64,000 nt of DNA from Spirochaetota bacterium (lineage in GTDB: Bacteria > Spirochaetota > Spirochaetia > Treponematales > UBA12059): NCBI GenBank assembly GCA_022703505.1, contig JAKLDN010000008.1, positions 158,422-222,421 on the forward strand, written 5' to 3'. Positions 22,199 through 56,635 of the stretch are shown in pieces (positions within the stretch are counted from its first letter, which is position 1; every line of letters starts with the position of its first letter). A program made the position numbers and the translations under genes. The notes under the pieces were generated by a model, which searched no databases, was not told the origin of the DNA, and worked only from the letters and a program-made list of their open reading frames with translations.

Positions 22199-22627
22199 TC
22201 AGTAAAGCAGTTCGACCCGGAGGCCCGGAAACCGTTGGAAATCCCGATCTCCCGTGACGATCACCGCGTCCTGTTCCAGACACAGGGCGGCCAGGTGGGC
22301 GTCCGTCGTGAGGTTGCCCCCCGTACCCGAGGCGAGCAGGAGGTGCCCCAGTATCCCGAGATGGGCCTTTCCGGGATCCAGGATACGGACCGACGGCCGG
22401 GCCGCCAGGTCCCGGATCCACTCCAGGGCCTGTTCAATGGATAAAGGCCGCGGGAAGACACGGCTCGAGGTCGTGAGCCGGAGGAACCCGAGGATCACGG
22501 CCCAGGGAAGTCCGATCTCCTCCGTTCCCCCGTTCACCTCCTCCTTCAGCCACGCCTCCGCCCGCTCGTGGCGGGCCGAGCCCGCGTCGACGGCGTACAG
22601 CAGGACGTTCAGGTCCGGGATGATCAC
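22199..22627 (-). CDS. vapC: PIN-domain toxin VapC
   Basis: MIIPDLNVLLYA...D..D acidic PIN residues. 4-nt overlap with the upstream antitoxin. Confidence 0.8.
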   Translation of the reverse strand: MIIPDLNVLLYAVDAGSARHERAEAWLKEEVNGGTEEIGLPWAVILGFLRLTTSSRVFPRPLSIEQALEWIRDLAARPSVRILDPGKAHLGILGHLLLASGTGGNLTTDAHLAALCLEQDAVIVTGDRDFQRFPGLRVELLY

Positions 22628-22881
22628 TTGCGCAGGTCCCGCTTGGCGATCGCGGCGTCGGCCTCCAGGCTATCCGCGACCTCCCAGGCCTTGTCGAGGT
22701 CCGCGGCGGGAGTCCCCATCCGGTAGGAAACGGGCTTCCACGGGGATCGGCCGACCGGGTCGCGCCCCAGGCCCTTTGCCAGGGTACGGTTCACCTCGTC
22801 CTTGAGGGTCGTCGAGTCCCGGGCCGCCCGGTCCTGTAGCTCGCGCATCAATATGTCCGAAATATCGATCGTAGTGCGCAT
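22624..22881 (-). CDS. vapB: VapB-type antitoxin
   Basis: 85-aa ORF overlapping the VapC start by ATGA. Typical type II TA layout. Confidence 0.6.
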   Translation of the reverse strand: MRTTIDISDILMRELQDRAARDSTTLKDEVNRTLAKGLGRDPVGRSPWKPVSYRMGTPAADLDKAWEVADSLEADAAIAKRDLRK

Positions 22882-22983
22882 ATGGACATCATACTGCTAT
22901 ATCCCGCCGGGGTCAATATTTCGGGTCCGAATCCGCCCACACGAGTCTTTAACCGGCCGCAAACGATTTTTCTGATTTTTCAT

Positions 22984-23017
22984 TGACGTCGCGTACATAG
23001 TGTAGTATATACACTAT
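22984..23017 (+). promoter_or_regulatory. Sigma-70-like promoter (TTGACG-16-TATATA) overlapping a 21-bp palindrome ATAGTGTA-GTATA-TACACTAT
   Basis: -35 at 22984-22989. Palindrome at 22997-23017 covers the -10. Lies 48 nt upstream of the sirtuin start. Confidence 0.55.
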
Positions 23018-23064
23018 TAGATGACCCGCGGCCGATCCTCGTGACCGGCTTCGAGGAGGAAACC

Positions 23065-23883
23065 ATGGCAAAACGGCATCGAATCGATCCTTCGGACTAC
23101 AGGTCCATCGTCTTCCTGACCGGGGCGGGGATATCCGTGGCCTCGGGGATCCGCCCCTATCGGGGACCCGGGGGCCTGTGGAACGACGAGACCCTGGTCA
23201 AGTTCTCGGACCTCGAGACTTTCCGGAAGGATCCCCTAGCGGTCTGGCGCTTCATGAGCGAGACCCGGAGGATCTCCGCCGCCGCCCGGCCCAACCCCGC
23301 CCACCTCGCCCTGGCGGAGCTGGAGGTACGGCTGGAGGCGGAGCAGTCCCTGACGGTCATCACCCAGAACATCGACGGCCTCCACCGCCGGGCCGGGAGC
23401 TCCCACGTGATCGAGTTCCACGGCTCCGTGACCCGGACCCGGTGCTCCAACCACCGCTGCGACTTTCCGGCCTTCGAGGATCCCCTCCTGCACGCGGATT
23501 CCGTGCCCCTCTGCTCGGTCTGCGGCGCCCCCCTCCGGCCGGACGTGGTCTTCTTCGGGGAGATCATCCCCTCCGTCCGGGGCGCCGCGGCCATGGAGGC
23601 CCTGGCGGACTGCGACCTCTTCGTAGCCGTCGGCACCTCGGCCTCGGTATACCCCGCGACCCGCTTCGTGGAATGGGCCTGGAAGCGGAACGCCCGGACG
23701 GTGTTCGTGAACGTGGAGTCCTTCCGGGATCGGGATCCCGTGGCCGCCACCTGGTTCCGGGAGGAGTACATCGGGCCCGCGGAACGGATCCTGCCCCGGC
23801 TCTTCGGGGAGGGCCTGGACGAGGAGGAGCTGGACGGGTACCGGCCCGAGGTACTGGAGGATCTCCCGGAAGCCCGGGAGTAG
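23065..23883 (+). CDS. NAD-dependent protein deacylase, Sir2 family (CobB-like sirtuin)
   Basis: GAGISVASGIRPYRG, TQNIDGLHRRAG, EFHGS catalytic His. Zn-ribbon CSNHRC...CSVCG. GAGGAGG RBS. Confidence 0.85.
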   Translation: MAKRHRIDPSDYRSIVFLTGAGISVASGIRPYRGPGGLWNDETLVKFSDLETFRKDPLAVWRFMSETRRISAAARPNPAHLALAELEVRLEAEQSLTVITQNIDGLHRRAGSSHVIEFHGSVTRTRCSNHRCDFPAFEDPLLHADSVPLCSVCGAPLRPDVVFFGEIIPSVRGAAAMEALADCDLFVAVGTSASVYPATRFVEWAWKRNARTVFVNVESFRDRDPVAATWFREEYIGPAERILPRLFGEGLDEEELDGYRPEVLEDLPEARE

Positions 23884-23917
23884 CGGGAATTCTGGCACGA
23901 ACGCGAGGAGAAGAATC

Positions 23918-25699
23918 ATGGAGAAAACGGACTTGAGTTTCATGTTCCTGAAAAAGGGCCTGGCCGCCGGCCGGGACCTGGATCTCGTGCTCCGGGTGGA
24001 GACCCCGGCCCGTACCTCCGAGGGCGCACGCAAGCCCGCGGACCTGGCCCTGGTCCTGGACCGCTCCGGATCCATGCAGGGCCGCAAGATCATCTACGCC
24101 CGGCAGGGGGCGGCCGCCGCCGTGGGCCTCCTGGGGCCGGAAGACCAGGCCAGCCTGGTGCAGTTCGACGACCGGGTGGACCTCCTCCAGCCCCTGACCC
24201 CGGCGGGCCGGGCCGGTGCCCTCCAGGCCGCCATCGCGGGCATCGAGCCCCGGGGCAACACCGATCTCCACGGGGGCTGGGCCGCGGGAGCGGACAGCCT
24301 GGGGGACGGAGAACCCGGACGCGGCGCCCGGCGGGTCGTCCTGTTGACCGACGGCCTGGCCAACCACGGGGTGACCGACCCCGGGACCATCGCCGCGAAG
24401 GTGGCCGAGGCGGCCCGCCGGGGCATCGCCACCAGCGCCCTGGGCATCGGGGAGGACTTCAACGAGGAACTCCTGGAGGCCGTGGCCCGGGCCGGGGACG
24501 GCTCCTACACCTTCGTGGAATCCCCGGACCAGCTGCCCGCCTTCTTCGAAGCCGAACTCGCGGGATTCGCGAACCTGGCGGGCCGGGAAGTCCGGCTCGG
24601 CCTGGCCCCGGGACCGGGGATCCAGATCGTCTCGGTCCTGAACGACCTTCCGTCCTCGAACACGGGTTCCCTGGTCCTGCCCAACCTGGTCGCAGGGGGC
24701 CGGCAGGAGATTGGGCTTACCGTGCGGGCCCTGCCGGGCCTGACCGCCCGGCCCGGGGAGGAGACGGAGCTCCTGGCGGTCCGGCTGGAATGGACCGATC
24801 CGGAGACCGGGGAGCGCCGGGAAATGCGGCAGGCCGCCCGCGTCCGGGCGGTCGAGGATCGGGATTTCGAGGCCCTGCCCGCGGATCCCGCCGCAGTGGA
24901 GACCCTGGCCCTGCTCCGGACGGCCCGGGCCAAGCGGGAGGCTCTGAACGCCGTGGACCGGGGGGACGAAGCGGGAATCGCCCTCGCGATGGACCATATC
25001 CGGGCCATCCTGGCGGGAACGCCTCCCACCGAACGGACGGAGCGGGAGAAGATCTCCCTGGCCTCCCTGGAGGAGGACTTCCGGCTCCGGAAAATGGGCA
25101 AGTTCCGCAAGAACGTGCACTACGAGTCCTACGCCCGGGGCCACGCCATGGACGAGGCCCGGCTCTTCGGACATTATTCCCGGAAGCTCCTGTTCCTGGT
25201 CCGGGACAGGCTGGACCTGCACATCGGCAGCCTGGCCGGCTTCCCCTGCGACGCGATCGTGAACTCCCGGTCCGACGAGCCCGCCTCGGGGCTGGACGAG
25301 GCTCTCCGGGCCGCGGGGGGCCCCGCCTTCCGGGCCGCCTGCGAGGCGATCGGCAGGCTGGGCGCAGGTGCCGCGGCCGTCACGGGCGGCGGAGACCTGC
25401 CCGTCAAGTCGGTCATCCACGTGCGGGTCCCGGACTGGCGGGGTGGGAATGCCTCCGAGTTCGGAGCTCTATCGGAGTGCTACGCGGCCTGCCTCCTCGT
25501 CGCGAAGGAGCGGGGCTTCGGCCACGTGGCCTTCCCGGTCCTGGGCGCGGGGGGCAGAGGATTCCCCGTAGATGCCGCAGTTTCCCTTGGGCTGAGTGCC
25601 GCGGCCCAGTTCCTGTTCTCGAACCCGGCGCCGCGGCGGGTGACCTTCGTCTGTCCGGACGGTCCGGCAGCCGAACTGATCTGGGGCCAGCTTCCCTGA
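23918..25699 (+). CDS. vWA (MIDAS) + Macro domain fusion protein
   Basis: N-terminal DLALVLDRSGSM MIDAS motif. C-terminal macro fold: DAIVNSRSD, GGP, VIHV, FPVLGAGGRGFPVD. Confidence 0.8.
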   Translation: MEKTDLSFMFLKKGLAAGRDLDLVLRVETPARTSEGARKPADLALVLDRSGSMQGRKIIYARQGAAAAVGLLGPEDQASLVQFDDRVDLLQPLTPAGRAGALQAAIAGIEPRGNTDLHGGWAAGADSLGDGEPGRGARRVVLLTDGLANHGVTDPGTIAAKVAEAARRGIATSALGIGEDFNEELLEAVARAGDGSYTFVESPDQLPAFFEAELAGFANLAGREVRLGLAPGPGIQIVSVLNDLPSSNTGSLVLPNLVAGGRQEIGLTVRALPGLTARPGEETELLAVRLEWTDPETGERREMRQAARVRAVEDRDFEALPADPAAVETLALLRTARAKREALNAVDRGDEAGIALAMDHIRAILAGTPPTERTEREKISLASLEEDFRLRKMGKFRKNVHYESYARGHAMDEARLFGHYSRKLLFLVRDRLDLHIGSLAGFPCDAIVNSRSDEPASGLDEALRAAGGPAFRAACEAIGRLGAGAAAVTGGGDLPVKSVIHVRVPDWRGGNASEFGALSECYAACLLVAKERGFGHVAFPVLGAGGRGFPVDAAVSLGLSAAAQFLFSNPAPRRVTFVCPDGPAAELIWGQLP

Positions 25700-25744
25700 A
25701 AGCCGGGCCCGCCTATTAACCCGTCGAAGGAGGATCCGAGACCT

Positions 25745-26431
25745 ATGTACACTTACCCGTACCCCCACCCCGCGGTCACCGTGGACTGCGTCGTCTTCGG
25801 CCTGGACGAGGGGGAACTCAAGGTCCTCCTTATCCAGCGGGACCTGGACCCCTTCGCCGGAAAATGGGCCTTGCCCGGGGGCTTCATCCGCATGGACGAG
25901 GACCTGGAGGCTGCCGCCCGGCGGGAACTGGAGGAGGAGACGGGGGTCAAGAAGCTGTACATCGAGCAGCTCGGGGCCTTCGGGACCCCCGGCCGGGATC
26001 CCCGGGAGCGGGTGGTCACCGTGGCCTGGTGGGCGGTGGTCAACCTCTACGAGCACGAGGTGAAGGCCTCCACGGACGCCCGGAACGCCGCCTGGTTCCC
26101 CGTGGAGGAGCTTCCCGCCCTGGCCTTCGACCATCCGGTCATCCTGGACGCGGCGCTGGCCCGCGTGCGGGAAACCCTGCGCCGGGAACCCCTGGCCTTC
26201 GAGTTCCTGCCCCGGAAGTTCACCCTGACCCAGCTCCAGCGCTTCTACGAGACCGTCCTGGGCCGGCCGTTGGACAAGCGCAACTTCCGAAAGAAGGTCC
26301 TTTCCTACGGCCTGCTTGAGGAGCTCGAGGAGTACGAGGTGGACGTGGCCCACCGGGCCGCACAGCTCTATACCTTCCGCCGGGACCGCTACGAAACGTT
26401 CCGGGAGGAAGGCAGCCGGTTCCTGGTATAA
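25745..26431 (+). CDS. NrtR-like Nudix hydrolase-domain transcriptional regulator (Nudix + C-terminal winged helix)
   Basis: Nudix box GKWALPGGFIRMDEDLEAAARRELEEETG. C-terminal 90 aa is helix-rich and basic (KRNFRKKVLSYGLLEE). GAAGGAGG RBS. Confidence 0.7.
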   Translation: MYTYPYPHPAVTVDCVVFGLDEGELKVLLIQRDLDPFAGKWALPGGFIRMDEDLEAAARRELEEETGVKKLYIEQLGAFGTPGRDPRERVVTVAWWAVVNLYEHEVKASTDARNAAWFPVEELPALAFDHPVILDAALARVRETLRREPLAFEFLPRKFTLTQLQRFYETVLGRPLDKRNFRKKVLSYGLLEELEEYEVDVAHRAAQLYTFRRDRYETFREEGSRFLV

Positions 26432-26440
26432 GGAGGCCTC

Positions 26441-28504
26441 ATGCTGGGCGCGATTTCAGGGGACGTCCTGGGCTCGTTGTACGAGGCCTGGTCGATCAAG
26501 GACAAGAACTTCCGGCTCTTCCACGAGCTGGACCGGCCCACCGACGACTCCGTCCTCTCCCTGGCGGTGGCCAAGGCGATCCTGGACGCCGACGCCGAGG
26601 GCCGGTTGCCGGAAGCCGGGGACTACGAGCGGGAACTCCGGGCCTTCGGCCGCCGCTACCCCGACGCGGGCTACGGGGGCTCCTTCCGGGCCTGGGTGAA
26701 CGATCCCGTAGGCAAGCCCTACGAAAGCTTCGGGAACGGCTCGGCCATGCGGGCCTCCGCCGTGGGCTGGGCCTTCGGGGACGCGGAAACCGTCCTGACC
26801 CAGGCGGAACTCTCGGCCGCCCCGACCCACGGCCACCCGGAGGGCATCAAAGGAGCCCAGGCCGTCGCCCTGGCGGTCCTCCGGGCCCGGACGGGATCCT
26901 CGAAGGAGGAAATCCGCTCGGAGCTCTCCCGCCGCTTCGGCTACGACCTGGGCCGGACCGTGGACTCGATCCGGCCGGGCTACCCCTTCGAGGTCAGCTG
27001 CCAGGCCTCGGTCCCGGAGGCGATCGTCGCCTTCCTGGATTCCCGGGATTGGGAGGACGCGGTGCGGAACGCCGTCTCCCTGGGGGGCGACGCGGACACC
27101 CAGGCCTGCATCGCCGGGGCGATCGCCGAGGCCTTCTACGGCGGGGTTCCGCCCCGGGTCCTGGCCTGGGTCCTGCCCCGGCTGGAGGCCGGCCTCCTTT
27201 CGACCCTCTCGGACTTCGCGCGCCGCTTCCTGCCCGCCGACCGGGCCGCGGCCGTGGCCGCCGAGACCGCGGCCCGCGGTCTGCCCCGGGGAGTACCGGG
27301 GGCGGGCGGGAACCGGAAGGCCGGCGGAGCCGGCCCCGCCCCGGGCGACCGGAAGCGCCGCGGAGCGGCGCATGCCGGAGACCCGGGCAGGGACCCCGAC
27401 ACCCGGCACCCCCTGGCCCCCGCCCCGGGCTACCGGGTGGTCCTGGCCGGCTCGACCCGGGCCCGGATCGCCGACTACGCACGGCGCCTTTCCGCGGACC
27501 CAGGTCTCGCGGGGGCGCGGCTCCAGGCGGCCCTGGCGGACCTGGCTGTCCCCAGGTTTGACGCGGCCTGGCTCCTCGTCTCCCTCCTGGCCACCAAGAA
27601 GCCCCGGATCTTCGCGGAGAGCGAGGTGGCCGGGGACGGCTCGGACTGGACCCGGGAGGAGCTCGGGCTTTTGGGGGACATCGGCTTCGCGGTGCCCGTC
27701 ACGGTCTTCGACGACGGCCGCCACTCCGCCCCCCGGGTACACTCGACGCCCTTCGGGGCCACCCTGCTCTTCGCCCCCGGGGCCCTGTTGGCAGGGAGGC
27801 GGGGATCCCCCGCGGACGGGCACGTAGCCCCCGGCGGCCACATCGACCCGGTCCGGTACGGGGCCCTCTACGAGGGGCGGCTCCTCCCCCTCCTCCAGTA
27901 CGCGAGCGCCGTCTCCTCGGCGGCGGGCCGGAAGGCCCTGGTCACCGTGCCGGGCCTGGGCTGCGGCCAGTTCGCCGGACCTTTCCGGGGCCGCCTGGGA
28001 CCGTACCTGAGGGACGCCCTGGCGGGGATCCTGAAACGGAACGCGAAGATCCTGCCGGGCATCCGGGCCGTCCGCCTCGATCCCTACGACGAATGCGGGA
28101 ACGAGGACCGGCGCATCGGACGGATCGCCTTCCGGGTCCGCCCCCTGGCGGTGAACGAACGGAAGGGCACGGGGCTCGGCCTGCCCCAGCTCCGCCCGCC
28201 CCGGGACTACCAGGAGCCCGGGGACGACTTCTCGGACTGCGACCTCTTCAGCGTCGTCGCCTGGGACCCCGTCTCCTGGCCCGGGAACGACTACTGGGCC
28301 GGGGCCCGGGCCACCGACGACGGGGTCAAGGCCGCGGCCACGGACGCGATGTTCGCCCTTTCGGGCTTCCGGGGCCGCTACGACCCGGAGACCTGCGGAT
28401 ATCTGCCGCCCCCGGGGGTCCGCGCCTGGGAGGACCTGGTCCTGGAGCAGCGCCTGGTCCTGCGGGCCGTGGACAACGTGACGGTCGTCGGATCTCCGGG
28501 ATGA
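26441..28504 (+). CDS. ADP-ribosylglycohydrolase (DraG/ARH family) fused to a 400-aa uncharacterized C-terminal domain
   Basis: N-terminal ARH motifs (DDSVLSLA, GNGSAMRASAVGW, GGDADTQACIAGAIAEAFYG). The C-terminal half has a TVPGLGCGQFAG glycine-rich loop and no family I can name. AAGGAGG RBS. Confidence 0.75.
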   Translation: MLGAISGDVLGSLYEAWSIKDKNFRLFHELDRPTDDSVLSLAVAKAILDADAEGRLPEAGDYERELRAFGRRYPDAGYGGSFRAWVNDPVGKPYESFGNGSAMRASAVGWAFGDAETVLTQAELSAAPTHGHPEGIKGAQAVALAVLRARTGSSKEEIRSELSRRFGYDLGRTVDSIRPGYPFEVSCQASVPEAIVAFLDSRDWEDAVRNAVSLGGDADTQACIAGAIAEAFYGGVPPRVLAWVLPRLEAGLLSTLSDFARRFLPADRAAAVAAETAARGLPRGVPGAGGNRKAGGAGPAPGDRKRRGAAHAGDPGRDPDTRHPLAPAPGYRVVLAGSTRARIADYARRLSADPGLAGARLQAALADLAVPRFDAAWLLVSLLATKKPRIFAESEVAGDGSDWTREELGLLGDIGFAVPVTVFDDGRHSAPRVHSTPFGATLLFAPGALLAGRRGSPADGHVAPGGHIDPVRYGALYEGRLLPLLQYASAVSSAAGRKALVTVPGLGCGQFAGPFRGRLGPYLRDALAGILKRNAKILPGIRAVRLDPYDECGNEDRRIGRIAFRVRPLAVNERKGTGLGLPQLRPPRDYQEPGDDFSDCDLFSVVAWDPVSWPGNDYWAGARATDDGVKAAATDAMFALSGFRGRYDPETCGYLPPPGVRAWEDLVLEQRLVLRAVDNVTVVGSPG

Positions 28505-28618
28505 GAAGGCTGAAGCGCCCGGACCTCCGGGAGCCCGAACTCCTGAAGGACCTTGGAAGCCGCGTGGCTCCGGAGGCGATCGTGACGTGACGAGAATCGG
28601 CGCCGAATCAAAAAAGAT

Positions 28619-28655
28619 GGAAAACGATGTAAACACCATTGAAAACCATGTAAAA
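28619..28655. promoter_or_regulatory. AT-rich 16-bp direct repeats spaced 21 bp apart upstream of the ZIP transporter gene
   Basis: GGAAAACGATGTAAAC and TGAAAACCATGTAAAA. Conspicuously AT-rich against 68% GC background. Confidence 0.45.
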
Positions 28656-28813
28656 AAGTTTGCGCGCGCGTCGGGAGGACGAAGCCGACCGCCTCATGCT
28701 TCGTGAGCCCGCACCCTCCCTCTGGCGCCCGGCCCGGCCATGCCCGATACTTGAACCGAGGCGGCCGCCGCCCGGACACTCGCTCCCTTCGGCGCGGCCG
28801 GACTGGAGGTTCC

Positions 28814-30112
28814 ATGGATCCCCTGGCGATATCCCAGGCCCTCTCGGCCCTGGTCTTCGGGGCCCTGTCCGCGGGGAGTCTCCTCCTGGGCGCCTGGACC
28901 GGAATATTCCTGAAGCCGCCGCCCCGGGTCTCCGCCGCGGTCATGGCCTTCGGCGCGGGGGCCCTCTTCGCGGCCCTGTCCCTGGAACTGATCGGCGAGG
29001 CGGTGGAGCGCCTCCACGGGAACTTCTGGCCCATCGGACTGGGCTGCGTGGCCGGGGGCCTGCTCTTCGTCACCCTGGACCACCTGGTGAACGGCGCGGG
29101 AGGCTTCCTCCGCAAGCGCTCCACCCTGTCCCGGCGCCTCCGAGCGGACCGGAGGAAGGACGTCCGGCTCCTCCTGGAGAGTCTGGCCAAGGTCCCCCTC
29201 TTCGCCAGCCTGCCCCCCGAGGAGGTCCGCAGCCTGGCGGACCAGGTGACCCGGGTGCGCTGCGACGCCGGCACCCCGGTCATCCGCACCGGGGAGCCCG
29301 GGGCCGAGCTCTACCTGGTCGAGTCCGGCCGCCTGGAGGTATCCCGGGGGGGCGCAAGCCTGGCGGTCCTCGGGCCCGGGGACATGGTCGGGGAGATGGC
29401 CCTGCTCACCGGGGAGACCCGCACCGCGGACGTGACGACCCTGGAAGCGGCGGTCCTGCTCACCCTGCGCAAGGAAGCCTTCGACCGACTCCTGGCCGCG
29501 AACCCCCGGCTCCGGGAGGCGGTGGAGAGACTGTCCGGCCAGCGGCGGGAGGCCCTGGAGAAGGCGGCCGCCACGGTGGACCCTGCGGCCTGGGCCCGGA
29601 AGGCCGGGACCGGGGACTGGAAGCCCAGCTCCCTGGAGCTGGACGAGGCCTTCGCCCAGGCTGGGGGAAAGAAGAAGGGCGGGGCCCCCATGGGTATCTG
29701 GCTGGGCATCCTCCTGGACGGCGTCCCCGAGTCCGCGGTCATCGGTGCCAGCATGATCGGGGCCGAGAAGGCCAGCCTGGCCCTGATCCTGGGACTCTTC
29801 ATCGCCAACTACCCCGAGGCCCTGTCCAGCGCCGTGGGGATGCGGAAGATGGGCATGTCGGTGTGGAAGATCACCGCCCTCTGGGGCTCCATCGTGGCCC
29901 TGACCGCGGTGGGCGCGGGGATCGGCAACCTGGCCTTCCGCTCGGCCCCCGGGGAGCTGGTGGCCCTCTTCGAGAGCCTGGCCGCGGGCTCCATGCTGGC
30001 CATGCTGGCGGAGACCATGATGCCCGAGGCCTACGAGCACGGCGGTTCCGTCACCGGTATGGCCACCATCCTGGGCTTCGTGTCCGCGGTCTTCCTGCGG
30101 GTGGCGGGGTGA
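28814..30112 (+). CDS. ZIP-family metal transporter with an inserted cyclic-nucleotide-binding (CAP_ED) domain
   Basis: TM helices and GIxLHxxxEG-like ZIP blocks at both ends. Central cNMP fold (FASLPPEEV...GEPGAELYLVESG...GEMALL..RTA). GGAGG RBS. Confidence 0.75.
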   Translation: MDPLAISQALSALVFGALSAGSLLLGAWTGIFLKPPPRVSAAVMAFGAGALFAALSLELIGEAVERLHGNFWPIGLGCVAGGLLFVTLDHLVNGAGGFLRKRSTLSRRLRADRRKDVRLLLESLAKVPLFASLPPEEVRSLADQVTRVRCDAGTPVIRTGEPGAELYLVESGRLEVSRGGASLAVLGPGDMVGEMALLTGETRTADVTTLEAAVLLTLRKEAFDRLLAANPRLREAVERLSGQRREALEKAAATVDPAAWARKAGTGDWKPSSLELDEAFAQAGGKKKGGAPMGIWLGILLDGVPESAVIGASMIGAEKASLALILGLFIANYPEALSSAVGMRKMGMSVWKITALWGSIVALTAVGAGIGNLAFRSAPGELVALFESLAAGSMLAMLAETMMPEAYEHGGSVTGMATILGFVSAVFLRVAG

Positions 30113-30205
30113 TTCGGAATTCCGAGCCCCCTCGATAATCAGGATGGATTCCCGGAACCGTGATAGACTGAAGGATAGAGAATCATTACAAAGGAGCGTC
30201 CCTTC

Positions 30206-31186
30206 ATGAAGATCCACGTCATCGGCTGCGGCAACGCCTTTTCCAGCGAGTCCTTCAACCAGTCCTTCGTGATCGAGGAAGCCGGGCGGCGCATGCTCAT
30301 CGACTGCGGCATGCAGACCCCCCAGGCCCTGGTCACGGCCCGGTACAAGCCCCAGGACATCCACGACATCTACGTGAGCCACCTCCACGCGGACCACGTC
30401 GGGGGCCTGGAGTACTTCGCTTTCGCCCGGTACGACTGGGCCAAGCATCCCCGGTCCTGGTCGGAGGGGACCTACGCCCCCCGGCTGATCGGCAACGTCC
30501 AGCTCCTCCGGGACCTCTGGGACAAGACCCTCCGGGGCGGCCTGGAATCCATGGAGGGTTTCGTCTCGAACCTGGAGACCTTCTTCGAGCCGGTCCCCGT
30601 CGAGCCGAACAAGCGCTTCGAGTGGCAGGGCTGGACCGTGGACCTGATCCAGCAGATCCACATCATGTCGGGCTCGGTGATCATGCCCTCCTTCGGCATC
30701 CTCTTCAGCAGGACGGGCCGCAAGTCCGTGTACTTCGTGACGGACAGCCAGCACTGCTCGCCCCGGCAGATCGAGGAGTACTACAAGCGCGCGGACCTGA
30801 TCTTCCAGGACTGCGAGTGCACGGGCATGGACCTTCGCTTCCCCGAGGGCGCCAAGACCTACGTCCAGGACGGGGTCCCGAAGGCCTGGCCCGAGGACGA
30901 GATGGAGGCCCTGGACCTCCTGGCCCGGGGGATCGAGCCCGTGAAATGGTCCCGGTACAAGTTCTCCTCGGGGGTCCACGCCAACTACGCCCAGCTGGCG
31001 GGCTACGAGAGCGCCAACTCCATCAAGCTGGATCCCCAGGTCAAGGCCAAGATGTGGCTCTCCCACTACCAGGACTACGTCCTCATCGGCAAGGACCACT
31101 TCGGCAACGAGGTCGACTGGGCCGCGGAGGCGAAGAGAGACGGGTTCGCGGGCTTCGTCAAGCTGGGCCAGCGATTCGAGGTCTGA
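30206..31186 (+). CDS. MBL-fold metallo-hydrolase
   Basis: HLHADHVGG (HxHxDH) motif. AAGGAG RBS. Confidence 0.75.
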   Translation: MKIHVIGCGNAFSSESFNQSFVIEEAGRRMLIDCGMQTPQALVTARYKPQDIHDIYVSHLHADHVGGLEYFAFARYDWAKHPRSWSEGTYAPRLIGNVQLLRDLWDKTLRGGLESMEGFVSNLETFFEPVPVEPNKRFEWQGWTVDLIQQIHIMSGSVIMPSFGILFSRTGRKSVYFVTDSQHCSPRQIEEYYKRADLIFQDCECTGMDLRFPEGAKTYVQDGVPKAWPEDEMEALDLLARGIEPVKWSRYKFSSGVHANYAQLAGYESANSIKLDPQVKAKMWLSHYQDYVLIGKDHFGNEVDWAAEAKRDGFAGFVKLGQRFEV

Positions 31187-31226
31187 GGTACGGAGGGTCC
31201 GGAATGGAACCGTCCGGGAGGTCCCC

Positions 31227-32774
31227 GTGAAGCGGCGTCCGCGGGACTCCGAGGAGCTCGAGGAACTCGAGGCTGTCGAGGAAGACGAGTCAGTCGAAGA
31301 GCTCGAGTCGGTCGAGGACGCGGAGCCGGTCCCCCAGGACTCGGAGGCGGTACCGCTGTACTCCGAACTTCCGGACTTCGCGTCCCCCGAGGCTTCCCTG
31401 GGCCCTCCGGGCGTGCCGGCCGACGAATCGATCCGGCGGGGATTCGAGGCGGAGATGCGGATCCTCCAGGCGGAACTGGAGAGGATCCGGCAGGCCAAGA
31501 GCGACGCGGCACGGCATGAAACACCGACCAGCGGCAGGAAGCACACAAAGGAGAAACCCATGGAAGAACTCAGGGACCCGGGCTCGAGCCCACAGACCTA
31601 CGGCACCAAAGAATACATCAAGCGGCGCCGCAAGCTTTCGGGCCTTTTCTTCGAGACCGCCCTGCCCAACGAGTACCTGGTGGAGGTGGGGCGCAAGGAC
31701 GTCCGACCCCGCCTGGGGGGCCGGCGATTCCGGCTCTTCCGTAAGTTCCTGCGCATCCCCGCCTCGGTCCAGACCCTGGTCTTCACCACGGACAACGCCA
31801 ACGTGGACTACCAGGGGATCGGTGTGGACGGCTACGCCTCCTGGCGGGTGGACCCGGAGCATCCCGAGGTCGCGGTCCGCACCCTGGACTTCTTCGACGA
31901 GGACGACCCCATGGCTCGCACCAACGCCGAGCTCCGGACGATCTGCGTGGAGGCGGTCCGCCACGTGATCTCCAACATGAGCATCGACGACGCCCTCAAG
32001 AAGAAGGACGAGATCGCGGAGAACCTCTCCCGCCAGCTCAAGGGGATCGAGCGGAAGTGGGGCATCCTCTTCGACCAGGTGGGGATCGAGAAGGTCCGCA
32101 TCATGTCGGACCGCCTGTTCGAGCAGCTCCAGGCCCAGTTCCGGGACGGGCTCCGGTTGGAGGTGGAGCGCAAGCGGATCGCCACGGACCGCCAGATCGC
32201 GGCGGAGCAGAACGCCATGCGGGAGGGCACGGGGCTGGAGACCATCCTGACCAACCAGAAACTCGAACTCTCCGAGGTGGAGCAGAAGGCCCGGGTCCAG
32301 GAGGCCCAGGCGGCGGAGGCCCACCGCCTGGCCCTCCAGAAGATCGAGATAGACCGCGCGACCTTCCGGGAAGAGCAGTCCTTCCGCACCGAGAAGGAGA
32401 AGGAGGGCCATGCCCTGGCACTCCTGGAACGGACACTGAAGACGGAACTGGCCGCCGCGGAACTCCGGCTCCTCAAGGAAGAGTCCTCGGTGGAGGACCT
32501 GCGGGCGAAGATCGGGGAGCGCCAGCTGGAGCTCCAGCGCCTCCAGCGGGAGGTTTCCCAGGTCTTCTCCGACCAGGCCCTGGCCAGCGAATTCATCCAG
32601 CGCCTGCCCTCCCTGTTCGCGGCCCTCCAGATCGACAACTACACCGTCCTGGATTCGGGCTCGGGCCAGGTCACGCCGGTCACCCGGGTGCTGACGGAGG
32701 TGGCCGCGGCCCTGAAGGGCCTGGACCTCAAGGGACTCCTGGGCGGGGGAAAGGACGCGGCCCCCGGGGCCTGA
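31227..32774 (+). CDS. SPFH/band-7 (flotillin-like) protein with acidic N-terminal repeats and long coiled coil
   Basis: GTG start after GGGAGG. EELEELEAVEEDESVEELESVED N-terminus. SPFH core. Extended EA-rich coiled coil. Confidence 0.65.
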   Translation: MKRRPRDSEELEELEAVEEDESVEELESVEDAEPVPQDSEAVPLYSELPDFASPEASLGPPGVPADESIRRGFEAEMRILQAELERIRQAKSDAARHETPTSGRKHTKEKPMEELRDPGSSPQTYGTKEYIKRRRKLSGLFFETALPNEYLVEVGRKDVRPRLGGRRFRLFRKFLRIPASVQTLVFTTDNANVDYQGIGVDGYASWRVDPEHPEVAVRTLDFFDEDDPMARTNAELRTICVEAVRHVISNMSIDDALKKKDEIAENLSRQLKGIERKWGILFDQVGIEKVRIMSDRLFEQLQAQFRDGLRLEVERKRIATDRQIAAEQNAMREGTGLETILTNQKLELSEVEQKARVQEAQAAEAHRLALQKIEIDRATFREEQSFRTEKEKEGHALALLERTLKTELAAAELRLLKEESSVEDLRAKIGERQLELQRLQREVSQVFSDQALASEFIQRLPSLFAALQIDNYTVLDSGSGQVTPVTRVLTEVAAALKGLDLKGLLGGGKDAAPGA

Positions 32775-45340: not shown

Positions 45341-45566
45341 GAACTTTCTATTACTTTGGATTATCACCGCCTGTCACTATTTATAATTATAGCAAGTATT
45401 TGCTTAGTTTTCAATAGTATGCGTTAGCAAGCGTTTTTATGGTTTTTTTAGATTTTTGCGCCCAATTTGCGCCCAGTTATTTATTGCTAACTATGCAATA
45501 GAAGAGGAAGCTCACCAAGCATTTTTATAGCCTTCGTCCTCAGTATGTACATGCTTCACCTCCTTA

Positions 45567-46823
45567 TCAAGCTCTTTTAAAAGCTCCCTGCATCCGCTCA
45601 ATTTCAGGCCTACGGATGCCCAGAGCCTTCGCCCGCACCTGCCACCTCGAGACCACCCCGCGTATCGCCTCCATGATCGAGAGTGCCTCGGGCTTTGAGA
45701 GCCTGAAGTACTGCGCGACCGATAGGGCCAAGTCGAAATCCAACGAATTGTCATGCTCGTCGATGGCGAGGGAGAGGCCCGCCGAATCAGGCGAGGGATT
45801 GATGTCGTAGGCGGGAGAAAGCCACCAGCCCTTCGCATCGAGGAGGAAGCCATGATTCCGAAGATGGTCGTCGGTGTTGGAAACGGCGATGGAAAACACG
45901 ATGCGTTTCCAGAGCTCCCGCAGATCGGCGTCGGGCCGGGATCCGGAGCGCATGATGAACTCCGCGAGCTCGAGGTAGCTTGCGCCGGCCTCGGCGTCAT
46001 CGCCGTCCTTGCGGCCGAGCAAGGTCATGGCGGAGGCGAAATGGATACGTCCCTCTCCTTGGCGATCGAAGCGCTTCGTCATGAAGGTGGAGCCTCGCTT
46101 CGAGAAGGAGTCTAGCCTGCATTCGCTCATCTCGATGCCAGCTGCGCAGGCGAGGTCGGCGACGAGCATCTCCCAAGCGCCTGAGTCGCGTTCATCATCC
46201 TTGCCCGGGAACTTGGCTATCCAGAGTTCGCCCTTCTCGTCCACTACGCTAGCCTTGGGCCTAGCGCCTCCGAGCGAGGAGCCGGGCGCAATCAACATGG
46301 CGAGCCAGGGGTCGAGCTTGTCGTCATCCTCTTCATGTTCCGCGAGGAAACTCGCATACTCGAGATCGCGTAGCGTTGACCACGGCGGGGCTGCCATAGC
46401 CGTATCCAAGCTCTGATAGGCTTCGTTGCCTGGTATCTTAAACCGCAAGGCGCCCAAACGATTCTTATCATGAACGCCGAGGAGGTACTCCGCTTCTCCG
46501 AGCCTTCGCGGCGTCCGCCCTTCCTTCCTTGCCAAGATGGCCTCGCGCCGCCTCATGAGGACGCGGCCCCAACGATCGGGAGAGGAATCCAGGAACAGGC
46601 CGAAATTTGGCTTACCCACCCCGGCATACTGGGGTCCCTTATAGAATCGCAGATCAGGGTCGAGCGTTCGGTTGTCGTCGCGGCGAAGCCATGCCGCGTC
46701 GTACTCGAAGGAGAAGACTTCCTTGCCGCGCGGCGCTTGGACGGACAACGTGCCGAGATGGGCAACGGATCCAAGGCCGAGCCAATCGGCATACACTTCG
46801 ATAGTGCGCCCGGCGTCGCTCAT
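45567..46823 (-). CDS. hipA: HipA-family Ser/Thr kinase toxin
   Basis: 418 aa. SNTDDHLRNHGF catalytic loop. Confidence 0.85.
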   Translation of the reverse strand: MSDAGRTIEVYADWLGLGSVAHLGTLSVQAPRGKEVFSFEYDAAWLRRDDNRTLDPDLRFYKGPQYAGVGKPNFGLFLDSSPDRWGRVLMRRREAILARKEGRTPRRLGEAEYLLGVHDKNRLGALRFKIPGNEAYQSLDTAMAAPPWSTLRDLEYASFLAEHEEDDDKLDPWLAMLIAPGSSLGGARPKASVVDEKGELWIAKFPGKDDERDSGAWEMLVADLACAAGIEMSECRLDSFSKRGSTFMTKRFDRQGEGRIHFASAMTLLGRKDGDDAEAGASYLELAEFIMRSGSRPDADLRELWKRIVFSIAVSNTDDHLRNHGFLLDAKGWWLSPAYDINPSPDSAGLSLAIDEHDNSLDFDLALSVAQYFRLSKPEALSIMEAIRGVVSRWQVRAKALGIRRPEIERMQGAFKRA

Positions 46824-47149
46824 GATTCATCCTTCTTCGGCGACTTTCGGGCACGCCGTCGGCTAGGAAGCTTGGCGTCCTGGAGAGCGCGTCCGAGCTC
46901 GTCATCGAGCGCGACAGCCTCGAGGTCCTTCTCGAGTCCCAGCACGAACAAGACCTGTATCCAAGTAGCCATCGATACCGAGCCGGAGCCATTCTCGAGG
47001 GCGCTCAGGGTCTGTCGGCTGATGCCCGCCCGTTCGGCAACCATCTCGGCGCTGAGATCGCGTCGGAGCCGCGCCAGTCGGATATTCTCGCCGAGCGTTT
47101 CGAGGCTACGTTGGACACTGGGCAATAGGACCGGGAGTTTCTTAGGCAT
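46820..47149 (-). CDS. hipB: HipB-like XRE-family HTH antitoxin
   Basis: LSAEMVAERAGISRQTLSALENG HTH. 4-nt overlap with hipA. Confidence 0.75.
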   Translation of the reverse strand: MPKKLPVLLPSVQRSLETLGENIRLARLRRDLSAEMVAERAGISRQTLSALENGSGSVSMATWIQVLFVLGLEKDLEAVALDDELGRALQDAKLPSRRRARKSPKKDES

Positions 47150-47353
47150 AACGTATAATATAATAGGCATAAAAGGTATATCTGTCAAATTATTACGACG
47201 TAAAACTGAATAACACAACTCACATGCAAAGGTGGTTCTTACAAAATGTCGAGAATCGGACTACTTTGATGTTCCTGACACGGCCACTTCATTGACCATA
47301 CCCTAGAAGGTATCTCCATGGTTTATACCTTGATGGGTAAATGGTAAGAAAGG

Positions 47354-47779
47354 CTATTGAACGATAGGCGTCTTCCCGTCCTTAACCTTGCTAGTCGTCT
47401 TAGCTGCAATCCGCGAGGCGGAGCCCCGGGACTTAGAAACTCCACGAGCACTGGAGGGTTGAGTAGCATAGGTCATAATCCGTTCACGCTGAATGAAGCC
47501 ATGGTCCTTCCGGAGGACTTCCAGAAAACGGCAAGCAGCGCCATTCGGGACGTTCCGACCAGCTTCCCAGGCCTCAACGGTCTTCTTAGCGACTCCAAGA
47601 ACTTGGGCGAAAACAGTCTGGGAAAGCCCAAGAGCGAGCCGGAGTGCCTTAACCGCATGGGCATCATAGGTGGGAAGCGGTGCTATCTTGATCGCTGTAG
47701 TCTTGAGCTTAAGCTTGCCCTCTTGATGAGCCTTGACCTCAGAGAGGCCACGCATGATGCTCTCGAACGCTTCGCCCAT
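47354..47779 (-). CDS. HigA-like HTH antitoxin
   Basis: LRLALGLSQTVFAQVLGVAKKTVEAWEAG HTH. Sits immediately downstream of the toxin. Confidence 0.7.
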   Translation of the reverse strand: MGEAFESIMRGLSEVKAHQEGKLKLKTTAIKIAPLPTYDAHAVKALRLALGLSQTVFAQVLGVAKKTVEAWEAGRNVPNGAACRFLEVLRKDHGFIQRERIMTYATQPSSARGVSKSRGSASRIAAKTTSKVKDGKTPIVQ

Positions 47780-47780
47780 A

Positions 47781-48109
47781 TCAGTCTCCTAACAGTCCCT
47801 TTACGTACGTCTTGATCGCCTGCTTCTCTTCGGAGCTCAGGTTGTCCTTCTCATCCTTACCGAAAACAGTGATGAGATAGATCAGGCCGGACGCCCGCAT
47901 ATCGAGATAGATCGTCCGCAGGCTCCCGGATTCCCCCTACCTTCGCGCGCCCAGCGCAGCTTACGCACACCACCTGTTCCCTGGATGACCGGAGCGATCT
48001 CCGGATGCTCGAGGAGGTAGTTCTGGAGCTCGCGGAGGTCATCCTCCGTCATCCCGAGGGCCTTCCATCGGGATTGGAACTCCTTGGTCTCTACAAAGGT
48101 TCTCGTCAT
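47781..48109 (-). pseudogene. RelE/HigB-family toxin disrupted by a -1 frameshift in a G5 homopolymer
   Basis: N-terminal MTRTFVETKEFQSRWKAL...GVRKLRWAREGRG in one frame. C-terminal ESGSLRTIYLDMRASGLIYLITVFGKDEKDNLS in another. Adding one G at about 47935 restores a 108-aa toxin. Confidence 0.7.
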
Positions 48110-48302
48110 CCAGTATACCAGACCACCCTATCTAATAGGGTACTTAGAATGAATATAGCTCTGTGAGAGACTCTCGTCTAGAAGAGGGAAGGATATGAAA
48201 GAGGAAACTCGATAAAGCGGTTTGACGCGCTCGAGCGAGTACTAGCAGGTACAGAATGTCTCTCCCCCATATCGCGTTGCCCTGAAACAGCCTGTGGGTT
48301 AA

Positions 48303-48338
48303 GACTAAAAAGCCCGCCCCATAAGGGAGCGGGCCAAG
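48303..48338 (-). terminator. Intrinsic terminator after the 327-aa gene
   Basis: Minus strand GGCCCGCTCCC-ttat-GGGGCGGGC followed by TTTTTAG. Confidence 0.55.
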
Positions 48339-48340
48339 GG

Positions 48341-49324
48341 TCATTCCAGGAAGCTATAACGGGACTTCATGTAGCGCGCCCAGGGTTCCAGCTCCGGGTG
48401 CCGGTCAGTCGGGACATACCGGAAGAGCTGTTCAGTCGGGATGTACCTGAACTCGTCGGGCATGAGGAGCAGTGTCGGCCACAGCTCGTAGAGGTCGCGG
48501 AAGAACTTACGGTAATGCGGCGAAGTGATGGACCGAAGTTCACGATTAGCTCCGACGGCAATGTGGACCACGATGACGTTATCGACCTCGGGGATGCCGA
48601 CCTCCAGGATGCGGGATGCCAGGAGTTGATGCCGGGCAAGCTGATACATCGGCTCATAGAGCAGGTATTCGATTCGCGGTACAACCTCCAGATTGAACGG
48701 TGTAAAGGGACCATAGAAGATCTCGCGGTAGGTATCCACGCGATCCGAGCCATCGGTCCTAAACCTCTTGTACTGGGACGAATAACTCTCGGTAAACTTA
48801 ACCTCGCACAGCATGAAGACCTTGCGATCATCCATGGTCTCAAAGCACATCGCAGCGTCGATGGAGGTTGAGCCAGCACCGCGAATCCGGTCGGTACCGA
48901 CATGAGATTCCTCCCCTAGGTAGTTGATGTCGCCCTGCCACTCGAAGGCGATGAACGCATCCTCCTCCACAGGGAGCATTCGTTTGATCTCGGGGAATTG
49001 CGGACGAAGGAAGTCAGCCAGAGCATCCGGGCGATTGCGGAACGGGAAGAGCGTGTTGACGCAGAATATCTGGCTGGAACAGGTATGGTTGGTTGGCAAG
49101 CCAGGAAGCGCGGCTCCATGCCAGACGATGCCAAGGCGCTCGAAGGTAGCCAGGGCATCGTCCCGGATCTCATGGAACAAGTTGTAGGCGGCGAGCTCAA
49201 GCGGGAAGCAGAATGGGTACATACGGCTCCGGTATAAGCCCGGAGCCCTGGCCTCGCGCGGGAGAGCCTTGCTGGTCAGCTTCCACTCCAACTGCATCTT
49301 CTTGGCGACGGAGAGGTAATTCAC
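48341..49324 (-). CDS. Hypothetical protein, possible PD-(D/E)xK-type nuclease
   Basis: 327 aa. DDRKVFMLCEVKF resembles a D...E-x-K patch. Sits downstream of the RecT-like gene. Confidence 0.35.
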   Translation of the reverse strand: MNYLSVAKKMQLEWKLTSKALPREARAPGLYRSRMYPFCFPLELAAYNLFHEIRDDALATFERLGIVWHGAALPGLPTNHTCSSQIFCVNTLFPFRNRPDALADFLRPQFPEIKRMLPVEEDAFIAFEWQGDINYLGEESHVGTDRIRGAGSTSIDAAMCFETMDDRKVFMLCEVKFTESYSSQYKRFRTDGSDRVDTYREIFYGPFTPFNLEVVPRIEYLLYEPMYQLARHQLLASRILEVGIPEVDNVIVVHIAVGANRELRSITSPHYRKFFRDLYELWPTLLLMPDEFRYIPTEQLFRYVPTDRHPELEPWARYMKSRYSFLE

Positions 49325-49338
49325 GATAAAGTCCTCCC

Positions 49339-50253: not shown

Positions 50254-50410
50254 GGGAGACCTCCTAGGGGATGGATCTCCAATATCAGTAGTATCGCCAT
50301 ATACGACCAGGAAGTAGAAATGTCCCAACCGAAGCCCAAGCTGGATGTTCATTGACAGCACAATTGGCGCGGTGTACTGTCCATAAGATACTTAACTGGA
50401 GGTAAAAACG

Positions 50411-50611
50411 ATGGCAGATGTATCTACGTCAGGATTCAATGGAACGACAGACATCCCAACGCAAGTCTTCGAAAGCTTCCTTTCGGAGCTGAAGAGCACC
50501 GGAGCATCGAGCGAGATGATCGAAAGACTTCGCAAGACGTTGCTCGAGGATCACATCTTCACAGAAGGCGCTCTAAAGACCGCCGTTCTAGGTGAGGAGA
50601 CGTCGCTATGA
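50411..50611 (+). CDS. Small 66-aa protein translationally coupled to the ATPase
   Basis: GGAGGT RBS. Stop overlaps the ATPase start (ATGA). Confidence 0.5.
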   Translation: MADVSTSGFNGTTDIPTQVFESFLSELKSTGASSEMIERLRKTLLEDHIFTEGALKTAVLGEETSL

Positions 50612-53061: not shown

Positions 53062-53240
53062 TGTCGCTTCTAGCTTTCGAAAGATAGAAGGCACTTTCTC
53101 CTCCTCGGGCTAGGTTTGTTAATGCCATCCTTAGACATGATAGCATTATACTATTGGACGGGATCTCCTACAGTATAGAGAGGGATTTATCAGCGCAGGG
53201 AATATGGCGGAAAACCAAAACCTACAATCAAGCATCATGT

Positions 53241-54146: not shown

Positions 54147-54158
54147 TATCTTAAGCGC

Positions 54159-56502: not shown

Positions 56503-56635
56503 ACTATACCTCCCATTGAGTGAATGATGTTGTATCGATCCTAAGCGATACTTAAAATATCTAATAGCCCCAGCGAGGGCAAGATCATACCGAGCATGAG
56601 TTACATGTTGACCTCTTCGACCGGATAACGCCTTT

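Follow-up and report, generated by a model that had tools for sequence, protein, structure and literature searches.

A stretch of 64,000 nucleotides from a Spirochaetota bacterium (assembly GCA_022703505.1, contig JAKLDN010000008.1), analysed whole and here called the window, carries at 23065-28504 four co-directional plus-strand genes that encode, in order, a sirtuin, a von Willebrand factor A (vWA) domain joined to a macro domain, a Nudix regulator of the NrtR family, and an ADP-ribosylglycohydrolase (ARH, also ARG) joined to a MavL-type macrodomain. Pfam and NCBIfam profile searches recovered every domain that an initial annotation had named (Sir2, vWA and macro, Nudix with the NrtR winged helix-turn-helix, ARH). 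The open reading frames (ORFs; 23041/23065-23883, 23918-25699, 25745-26431 and 26441-28504 in the ORF listing) lie 34, 45 and 9 nt apart, and the Shine–Dalgarno sequences GAGGAGG, GAGGAG, GGAGG and AGGAGG precede genes 1 to 4, respectively, at 6-11 nt 5′ of each ATG, so that the tight spacing and strong translation signals proposed earlier are borne out. The four ORFs are taken to be coding because their GC content is 0.89-0.93 at the third codon position and 0.39-0.55 at the second. Position 22984, with which the initial annotation had opened the operon, does not mark the start of a gene: the first codon read from it is a stop, and the site coincides with a −35-like TTGACG, the sirtuin ATG being 23065. 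The four-gene set is a genuine operon of a high-GC Spirochaetia genome, and the closest genomic relatives of the locus are uncultured Spirochaetes and Treponema metagenome-assembled genomes (MAGs). The features are as follows.

22983..23011, plus strand: candidate sigma-70-type promoter read from the sequence, TTGACG (22983-22988), 17-nt spacer, TATATA (23006-23011)
22997..23017, no strand assigned: predicted NrtR operator, a perfect 21-bp palindrome, ATAGTGTAGTATATACACTAT, overlapping the promoter spacer and −10
23065..23883, plus strand: gene 1, sirtuin, 272 aa (PF02146 1e-42; motifs GAGIS, TQNID, HG and CX4C...CX2C)
23918..25699, plus strand: gene 2, vWA-macro protein, 593 aa (Pfam VWA 2e-15, Macro 1e-22)
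24041-24574, plus strand: gene 2, vWA domain with metal-ion-dependent adhesion site (MIDAS)
24575-24850, plus strand: gene 2, beta-sandwich
24887-25198, plus strand: gene 2, helical bundle
25211-25690, plus strand: gene 2, YmdB-like macro domain
25745..26431, plus strand: gene 3, NrtR-family regulator, 228 aa (PF00293 1e-23, 84 bits; PF21906 2e-26, 92 bits against a cut-off of 27; NF050029 2e-51)
25772-26134, plus strand: gene 3, Nudix domain with intact Nudix box
26195-26377, plus strand: gene 3, NrtR winged-helix domain
26441..28504, plus strand: gene 4, ARH-MavL fusion, 687 aa (PF03747 1e-33, PF24754 6e-105)
26441-27226, plus strand: gene 4, ARH (ARG) domain
27227-27430, plus strand: gene 4, low-complexity Ala/Gly/Pro/Arg linker
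27431-28411, plus strand: gene 4, MavL-type macrodomain (PF24754, residues 331-657)

The palindrome that had been suspected upstream of the operon is real. It is built as ATAGTGTA-GTATA-TACACTAT, that is, two arms around five central nucleotides with a GT-N7-AC core, and it fits exactly the published definition of NrtR sites by length (21 bp), palindromic symmetry and this core (Rodionov et al., 2008, NAR 36:2047, PMC2330246). Allowing up to three mismatches, the box is unique in the 64-kb window, and it occurred in none of 100 shuffles. As read from the sequence, a promoter before the sirtuin gene, with the operator lying across its spacer and −10, is plausible.

For comparison among relatives, 23 ARH-MavL fusion proteins were used to fetch loci (here given L-numbers) from species-representative genomes, exact-protein look-ups on metagenome contigs were added, and the neighbourhoods were tabulated. 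The fusion is essentially confined to Spirochaetota, with one locus (L011) labelled as a gammaproteobacterial MAG. The following gene sets were found.

Sir2, vWA-macro, NrtR, ARH-MavL: the window, L089 and L090; L001 is cut
Truncated vWA-macro, NrtR, Sir2, ARH-MavL: L082
NrtR, Sir2, ARH-MavL: L004/L084
Sir2, ARH-MavL: L003
NrtR, ARH-MavL: L002, L005, L081 and L086
NrtR, (ARH), NadR, PnuC, ARH-MavL: L085 and L087
ARH / vWA-macro, NrtR / ARH, with stand-alone ARHs: L088
ARH-MavL alone: L006, L008, L009, L011 and L083

The operator travels with these genes. A half-site scan, in which a match needed the GT-N7-AC core and no fewer than 12 of the 16 arm positions, returned 21 matches over the 278 kb of spirochaete loci; 874 kb of AT-richer control loci gave 5, none of which scored above the minimum. 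A box stands directly upstream of the homologous operons in L002, L004/L084, L005, L081, L082, L085, L086, L087 (two boxes), L089 and L090, and also 5′ of ARH-MavL genes without an adjacent nrtR in L009 and L083, while in L088 a separate box precedes each of ARH, vWA-macro, nrtR and a second ARH. In both L081 and L089, the promoter block is preserved as a whole. NrtR plus ARH-MavL form the conserved core, to which Sir2, macro or vWA-macro, extra ARHs and NadR-PnuC are added as interchangeable accessories; together with ARH-MavL, these accessories make up the predicted regulon of the clade. Because the same components recur in varied orders behind the same box across about a dozen Spirochaetota assemblies, we regard the operon linkage as functional rather than accidental. 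Of the neighbourhood conservation on which the initial annotation had made its proposal depend, the recurrence of components and operator held in many Spirochaetota assemblies, and the full four-gene set proved to be restricted to close relatives. The notion that the sirtuin is a plain CobB placed there by chance, entertained in the same annotation, fails on the recurrence of this sirtuin lineage with NrtR and ARH-MavL, in varied gene orders and behind the same operator; chance adjacency is rejected.

Instructive for the composition of the operon itself is L081, a syntenic relative that is 88% identical in protein and shares the promoter, the box, the 5′ untranslated region and the racemase, PIN and metallo-β-lactamase (MBL) flanks. 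There, nrtR follows directly, with no sir2 or vWA-macro between; because of this, the pair is an accessory and behaves as a present-or-absent two-gene cassette. At the junction (L081 3630-3905 compared with window 22860-23075), a 15-nt unit, GGGACCGGCTCCAAG, is tandemly repeated about four times; it may represent a scar, or else a leader prone to slippage. NrtR boxes are also found directly 5′ of DUF1152 genes in L089 (3422-5296), L083 (12344-14834) and L085 (5885-8171). The DUF1152 partner is a homologue of Zn-type histone deacetylases in L089 and, in L083 and L085, a protein of 386-447 aa with an N-terminus weakly resembling nucleoside deoxyribosyltransferases; the DUF1152 genes and their partners are probably further members of the regulon.

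Gene 3 matches both the Nudix and the NrtR_WHD profiles, and its earlier designation as an NrtR-like Nudix regulator stands. The K179, R180, N181, K184 and R205 side chains with which the L-arabinose sensor AraR of Bacteroides thetaiotaomicron (BtAraR) reads a GTGT motif (PMC4666351) are all five conserved, and the operator half-site contains GTGT. Sequence and comparison therefore point to one operon under one operator that overlaps the promoter, with a regulator whose DNA-reading residues match that operator. The nearest solved relative of the regulator is in fact BtAraR (5bs6; 2e-58, 42% identity), against 3e-30 for Shewanella NrtR (SoNrtR). Together with L34, an AraR-like residue at the BtAraR F36/SoNrtR N43 position, and with the known diversification of effectors in the NrtR family (PMC4666351), this kinship speaks for a regulator that, as a relative of AraR and XylR, senses a free sugar or other metabolite rather than ADP-ribose, in which case the enzymes would act on soluble nucleotide-sugar metabolites. 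We consider such a role very improbable, since sugar-catabolic genes are present in none of about 15 operons and the partners are all NAD or ADP-ribose enzymes. Moreover, the Nudix box, GFIRMDEDLEAAARRELEEETGV, is fully canonical, unlike that of AraR and of many NrtRs, in which it is impaired. Within the effector pocket, R32, R84 and H130 are conserved, and R87 occupies the position of SoNrtR R98, which contacts ADP-ribose and is replaced by Gly in the arabinose sensor. Given that the nearest solved relative is the arabinose sensor, it is from context that we infer ADP-ribose as the effector.

Set beside published NrtR regulons, the system shows a Nudix–winged helix-turn-helix repressor, a 21-bp GT-N7-AC palindrome overlapping the promoter, predicted autoregulation, linkage to an ADP-ribosylglycohydrolase (an nrtR-draG locus was noted in Streptomyces; Rodionov et al., 2008) and, in relatives, NAD salvage genes. 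It departs from them in a regulator nearer the Bacteroides AraR branch, in its intact Nudix box, and in governing here mainly ADP-ribose erasers and a sirtuin instead of NAD biosynthesis genes.

The product of gene 4 combines two unrelated folds. The ARH with an extra C-terminal domain of ~400 aa had been recognized correctly, whereas the domain then called unknown is a MavL macrodomain (DUF4804 class), which aligns end to end with the crystal constructs of Legionella MavL (1e-63). Two class motifs were sought, [VIL]xGxGxGx[FWY] and WDxx[SA]xPGN[DE][FY][FWY]; both are present, as VPGLGCGQF and WDPVSWPGNDYW, and invariant or nearly so across the 23 fusion proteins. The residues that mutagenesis or structure has shown to matter in MavL, namely F105, E107, F227, D315, N322, D323, T331 and D333 (Zhang et al., 2024, Nat Commun 15:2452, PMC10951314), all have their equivalents in the fusion (F391, E393, F511, D609, N616, D617, T625 and D627). 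By analogy, the domain is predicted to cleave mono-ADP-ribosyl-arginine. In contrast to MavL, the fusion is not a secreted Legionella effector and lacks a ubiquitin/SidE context, being joined instead to an ARH under NrtR in a free-living spirochaete. The description of the MavL class by Zhang et al. mentions neither a fusion nor an operon context, and our literature search, which covered few subscription journals, found no description of an ARH-MavL fusion or of NrtR control over a MavL-class enzyme.

The ARH half retains its metal ligands and TH motif (E15, T34-D35-D36, T129-H130, D217-x-D219-T220) and is nearest to ARH3 (2e-12), with ARH1 or DraG at ~1e-5. Its closest relatives, at 50-61% identity, are ARGs joined to ARPP-1 (PF20208), SseB (PF07179), vWA, DUF1810 or DUF3293. 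Stand-alone MavL homologues, for their part, are widespread, with 257 confirmed loci in species-representative genomes. Among 69 of these that were examined, all-versus-all clustering of neighbours yielded as conserved partner only a small CX5R DSP-type phosphatase (PF22784/PF22785/PF22741), which adjoins MavL in 10 loci (L017, L023, L027, L039, L049, L058, L064, L065, L070 and L079), and no ADP-ribosyltransferase (ART). Rhodanese-type phosphatases of this class are also found with ARGs in the ARG-centric systems discussed below.

The vWA-macro protein likewise stands as first described, a macro domain fused to a vWA domain with an intact MIDAS, whose residues (DxSxS, T115 and D145) are invariant. 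Its AlphaFold model is confident (pLDDT 89.3, predicted TM-score 0.85). In Foldseek searches, residues 1-427 resemble 4fx5, archaeal ArnB and the Sec23/24 core (E=8e-22 to about 1e-21), and the macro domain resembles YmdB (TM-score 0.88, root-mean-square deviation [rmsd] 1.9 Å, 32% identity; phmmer 7e-22), superposing on YmdB and MacroD structures with TM-scores of 0.87-0.89 and an rmsd of 1.7-2.0 Å. The MacroD signature motifs, Nx6GG[VLI] and G[VIA][YF]G, are degenerate in the clade of the window. There the first reads NSRSDEPASGLD, with Ser at the position of YmdB N25 and SG for GG, and the second GAGGRGFP, with GR for [VIA][YF]; in more remote vWA-macro proteins both motifs are canonical. 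Binding of ADP-ribose by the macro domain therefore appears plausible, and because of the degenerate motifs its activity as an eraser is uncertain. An identical partial copy of the protein has been deposited from a Spirochaetia MAG.

The ~420-aa vWA module is also found alone, or joined to an ARH instead of a macro domain. Since it occurs fused to both, the vWA scaffold repeatedly recruits differing ADP-ribose hydrolase folds. The combination of vWA, sandwich and helical bundle with an ARH is seen in proteins P0149, P0150, P0155, P0046 and P0048, and some such proteins have two ARH domains with the vWA; the locus of P0155 (L091) has no NrtR. The two loci of stand-alone vWA homologues differ in their surroundings, L092 adjoining DUF3293 with a SIR2 nearby and L093 lying in an unrelated context. 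What is left of the vWA-macro gene in L082 (3534-4850) are two ORFs that span just the sandwich/helical part and the macro domain, with no vWA and with an NrtR box immediately 5′; the reduced gene is either a product of decay or a vWA-less variant.

The sirtuin is a canonical Zn-binding Sir2, as had been stated, with its four Zn cysteines and GTS kept. Its best matches in the Protein Data Bank are SIRT5, CobB and Af-Sir2 (4e-42 to 1e-39). The NCBIfam CobB-like models fall below their cut-offs (the CobB equivalog scores 205 bits against 320). The pocket for acidic acyl groups in class III sirtuins, which we take to be the YxxR pair of SIRT5 residues, is not present, as the sirtuin reads FMSETRR where SIRT5 has FYHYRRE (Y to M, R to T). 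Orthologues in L089, L082, L084 and L004 are 51-94% identical, and in the operon-linked ones H119 and G120 of the catalytic motif, VIEFHGS, are invariant. We predict a deacylase-type, NAD-dependent lysine deacylase of a lineage that travels with the operon.

The initial annotation had cast the sirtuin as the writer of a self-contained writer/eraser/sensor circuit, in which it would attach ADP-ribose to a target protein in the manner of SirTM, to be removed again by the macro, ARH and MavL domains. The adjacency of the sirtuin and macro genes, which are gained or lost together between the window or L089 and L081, is consistent with this, as are the company that the operon-linked sirtuin lineage keeps with ARH-MavL in at least five lineages and the weak ART activity reported for some HG-type sirtuins (PMC4518038). 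However, the defining features of SirTM sirtuins are a QG that replaces HG and a GVGx[NT]TP diphosphate loop (PMC4518038), and here both are absent, the sirtuin having HG and, at the loop, AVGTSASVYP; membership in SirTM is thereby rejected. Its best matches are deacylases, most NrtR/ARH-MavL operons (L002, L005, L081, L085 and L086) have no sirtuin at all, and MavL-class enzymes act on ADP-ribosyl-arginine, a linkage not demonstrated for known sirtuin ARTs. Pfam scans of the operon and its flanks found neither of the SirTM partners, GcvH-L and LplA2. Such a writer circuit thus seems improbable. Compared with the SirTM/Zn-macrodomain operons (Rack et al., 2015, Mol Cell 59:309), then, the likeness is confined to a sirtuin gene adjoining a macrodomain gene in one operon; beyond the sirtuin motifs and missing partners, the macro domain here is YmdB-like and vWA-fused, and NrtR and ARH-MavL are present. 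A writer elsewhere in the window is likewise rejected, a Pfam scan of ~50 window genes having revealed no ART domain.

A chemically more coherent pairing is offered by CobB and YmdB, since a deacylase-type sirtuin and a YmdB-like macro fold would be producer and consumer of O-acetyl-ADP-ribose. The differences are that this sirtuin does not reach the cut-offs of the CobB equivalogs and has no class III YxxR, that the macro motifs are degenerate, and that the genes are operon-linked and NrtR-regulated. Two other roles for the sirtuin were considered. PADLOC defence models gave no match for the sirtuin, vWA-macro or ARH-MavL and only a generic Nudix match for gene 3, and a defence-type Sir2 or a known anti-phage system was rejected on the lack of matches for the enzymes. 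Deacetylation of NrtR by the sirtuin was suggested by M. smegmatis, in which NrtR is acetylated; deletion of cobB left that acetylation unchanged (PMC6800001), which weighs against the idea, and we retain it as a lead only.

Taken together, we favour, with a probability of roughly 0.6, an autoregulated, ADP-ribose-inducible and self-amplifying module that would strip ADP-ribose from proteins, clear O-acetyl-ADP-ribose, and be tied to NAD homeostasis. In the predicted cycle, an NrtR dimer would bind the 21-bp box over the promoter spacer and −10 and repress the operon. By homology to NrtRs, which ADP-ribose frees from DNA (PMC2330246, PMC6800001), free ADP-ribose or a close derivative would bind the Nudix domain and cause NrtR to leave the operator. 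Three domains could then release ADP-ribose, namely the ARH3-like, metal-dependent ARH, the MavL-type macrodomain on the same polypeptide, and the YmdB-like macro domain on its vWA scaffold. The vWA-macro protein, built on an ArnB/Sec23-like protein-binding scaffold, might be a reader or a tether; it might instead hydrolyse O-acetyl-ADP-ribose or protein-ADP-ribose. Going by what is known of these families, the sirtuin by-product O-acetyl-ADP-ribose would be a substrate for macro- and ARH3-type enzymes, and the ARH3-like and YmdB-like enzymes would hydrolyse either it or protein-ADP-ribose. Because all three hydrolase domains would generate the presumed inducer, the circuit would be self-amplifying: a little ADP-ribose, from modified proteins or from sirtuin turnover, would derepress more erasers and, in relatives, NadR-PnuC NAD salvage as well. 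With its intact Nudix box, NrtR may itself hydrolyse ADP-ribose and so reset the switch. The operon appears to encode no dedicated writer, so that ADP-ribosylated substrates would come from endogenous, toxin or phage ARTs. Of the overall proposal made earlier, the sensor and the erasers in a single operon of NAD- and ADP-ribose-related genes are upheld by the recurrence of the operator, while the writer was lost to the sirtuin motifs and the unknown domain to the PF24754 match.

Several observations weigh against this module. First, the substrate specificity of the ARH cannot be read off its sequence, and the macro domain, in which Ser replaces the catalytic Asn, SG replaces GG and GR replaces [VIA][YF], may hydrolyse nothing. 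Second, the regulator is by sequence nearer to the L-arabinose sensor BtAraR than to the ADP-ribose-responsive NrtR. Third, a consensus promoter scan did not call TTGACG-17-TATATA, the −10 having A instead of T at position 6, and in L003, L006 and L011 the half-site scan and the neighbourhoods revealed ARH-MavL with neither a detectable box nor nrtR. Finally, the rationale for inducing an NAD consumer, the sirtuin, upon a signal of NAD consumption is not obvious.

The closest published counterpart of the operon is the ARG-centric system predicted by Iyer and coworkers. Besides an ARG, it comprises a repressor of the Nudix- or WYL-HTH type, phosphatases, vWA/SseB/TY chaperones and an optional Macro or NADAR; it was proposed to be induced in a feed-forward manner and was interpreted as a defence against phage ARTs (Iyer, Burroughs, Anantharaman, & Aravind, 2022, Viruses 14:1977, section 3.8; PMC9503650). 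The operon has an ARG of the clade that joins ARPP, SseB and vWA, a Nudix-HTH negative regulator (gene 3) presumed to sense ADP-ribose, a vWA chaperone with intact MIDAS (gene 2), the optional Macro, a variable accessory shell and the same feed-forward logic. The initial claim that the gene set is distinct from described systems thus holds less than was thought, both nrtR-draG (PMC2330246) and the set of ARG, Nudix transcription factor, vWA and Macro (PMC9503650) having been described or predicted. Differences are nevertheless apparent. ARG-centric systems were selected for having no genomically coupled sirtuin or ART, and ~55% have a coupled phosphatase (PMC9503650), whereas a sirtuin is the first gene of this operon (the core-only relatives L081, L086 and L002 are without it) and neither phosphatase nor ARPP is present, the DSP-type phosphatase occurring only beside stand-alone MavL elsewhere. 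The ARG is joined to a MavL-type macrodomain and the Macro to vWA, the phylum Spirochaetota is not on the list of Iyer et al., and the regulon of relatives includes nadR-pnuC.

Could the operon, then, be a dedicated immunity system against foreign ARTs, a member of these conflict systems? In that case phage or toxin ARTs would modify host proteins, basal erasers would free ADP-ribose, the Nudix transcription factor would derepress the operon, and the erasers would strip the modification from targets recruited by the vWA chaperone. The fusion partners of the nearest ARH relatives (50-61% identity), namely ARPP-1, SseB, vWA, DUF1810 and DUF3293, are hallmarks of the ARG-centric system; Nudix-HTH factor, vWA and Macro are all in the operon; accessory genes are gained and lost between close relatives; and stand-alone MavL homologues, like the ARGs of that system, adjoin DSP phosphatases of the rhodanese type. 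Arginine-specific members have been characterized for each of the two fused eraser folds (MavL on one side, DraG, ARH1 and Tri1 on the other), though this ARH is nearest ARH3, and arginine is the residue modified by R-S-E ARTs such as Tre1, DraT and SdeA. Toxin-antitoxin pairs flank the operon, and a defence island lies at 46-64 kb. Yet the same regulator and box govern nadR-pnuC NAD salvage in L085 and L087, which argues for homeostasis; the published system is defined without a linked sirtuin or ART and usually has a phosphatase, the reverse of what is found here; the enzymes have no PADLOC matches; the locus has conserved, syntenic neighbours on the chromosome (racemase, VapBC, MBL, Band7); and the ARG-centric system is itself only a prediction. 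On balance, we regard dedicated immunity as unlikely, if less so than the sugar sensor or the writer circuit, and retain the ADP-ribose-inducible eraser module.

The setting of the operon is chromosomal, the window bearing rpsI/rplM, recX, RNase II, katG and a sigma-54 activator. Upstream lies a VapBC pair and downstream a cyclic-nucleotide-binding membrane protein, an Apyc1-like MBL and a Band7 protein. The VapB-like protein (85 aa) and the VapC PIN toxin (142 aa) are encoded at 22199-22916 on the minus strand, divergent from the operon, with their own promoter, TTGACC-17-TATGAT, at 22916-22888; PIN toxin-antitoxin pairs hold the same position in L081 and L089. Beyond gene 4, a terminator scan gave nothing convincing, and an A-rich gap of 200 nt contains a direct repeat, GAAAAC[GC]ATGTAAA, at 28620-28633 and 28641-28654. 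The stretch 28505-32774 encodes the membrane protein, which is ZIP-like, the MBL phosphodiesterase (75 bits against a cut-off of 50) and the Band7 protein. MBL and Band7 genes likewise flank NrtR/ARH-MavL in L086 (4351-6597; 52% identity), with fragments in L081 (7501-9763), and this neighbourhood may amount to more than mere synteny. From 45500 to 64000, GC drops from ~0.65-0.72 to 0.49-0.60, and this stretch, which lies ~17 kb away from the operon, has the look of a defence and mobile island gained by horizontal transfer. It carries the following genes.

45567-46823, minus strand: HipA
48341-50361, minus strand: REase-ARP (PF22558) adjoining RecT
50608-53061, plus strand: SMC-like ATPase
55083-56336, minus strand: ThiF/E1 protein with DUF6791
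56636-60977, minus strand: type III restriction Res and Mod pair

Earlier work has described or predicted the sensor, the families of erasers and the feed-forward logic alike, and the locus adds no new principle and no new writer/eraser pathway. Setting it apart from the ARG-centric template are the linked sirtuin, the lack of a phosphatase, the ARG-MavL and vWA-macro fusions, the phylum, and the co-regulation of NAD salvage in relatives. With one operator, one repressor and separable hydrolase domains, the locus is a compact, assayable case of a predicted system. The only MavL-type arginine-specific macrodomains characterized so far are one Legionella effector and two fly proteins; a chromosomal, NrtR-regulated MavL domain with intact catalytic residues, together with the 257 stand-alone loci, implies an endogenous bacterial role in arginine de-ADP-ribosylation. 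The findings also suggest that NrtR regulons can couple the reversal of ADP-ribosylation to NAD salvage.

One may tentatively go a step further and picture NrtR and ARH-MavL as a damage-sensing circuit, in which two unrelated eraser folds would turn arginine ADP-ribosylation of proteins, whether endogenous enzymes or ARTs of phage or toxin origin had introduced it, into free ADP-ribose, upon which NrtR would induce the erasers and, in relatives, NAD salvage through NadR-PnuC, while the vWA-macro protein would serve as a reader or adaptor delivering modified proteins. This more specific picture is possible but speculative. If true, such a circuit would be the first regulatory link of protein ADP-ribosylation load to NAD replenishment.

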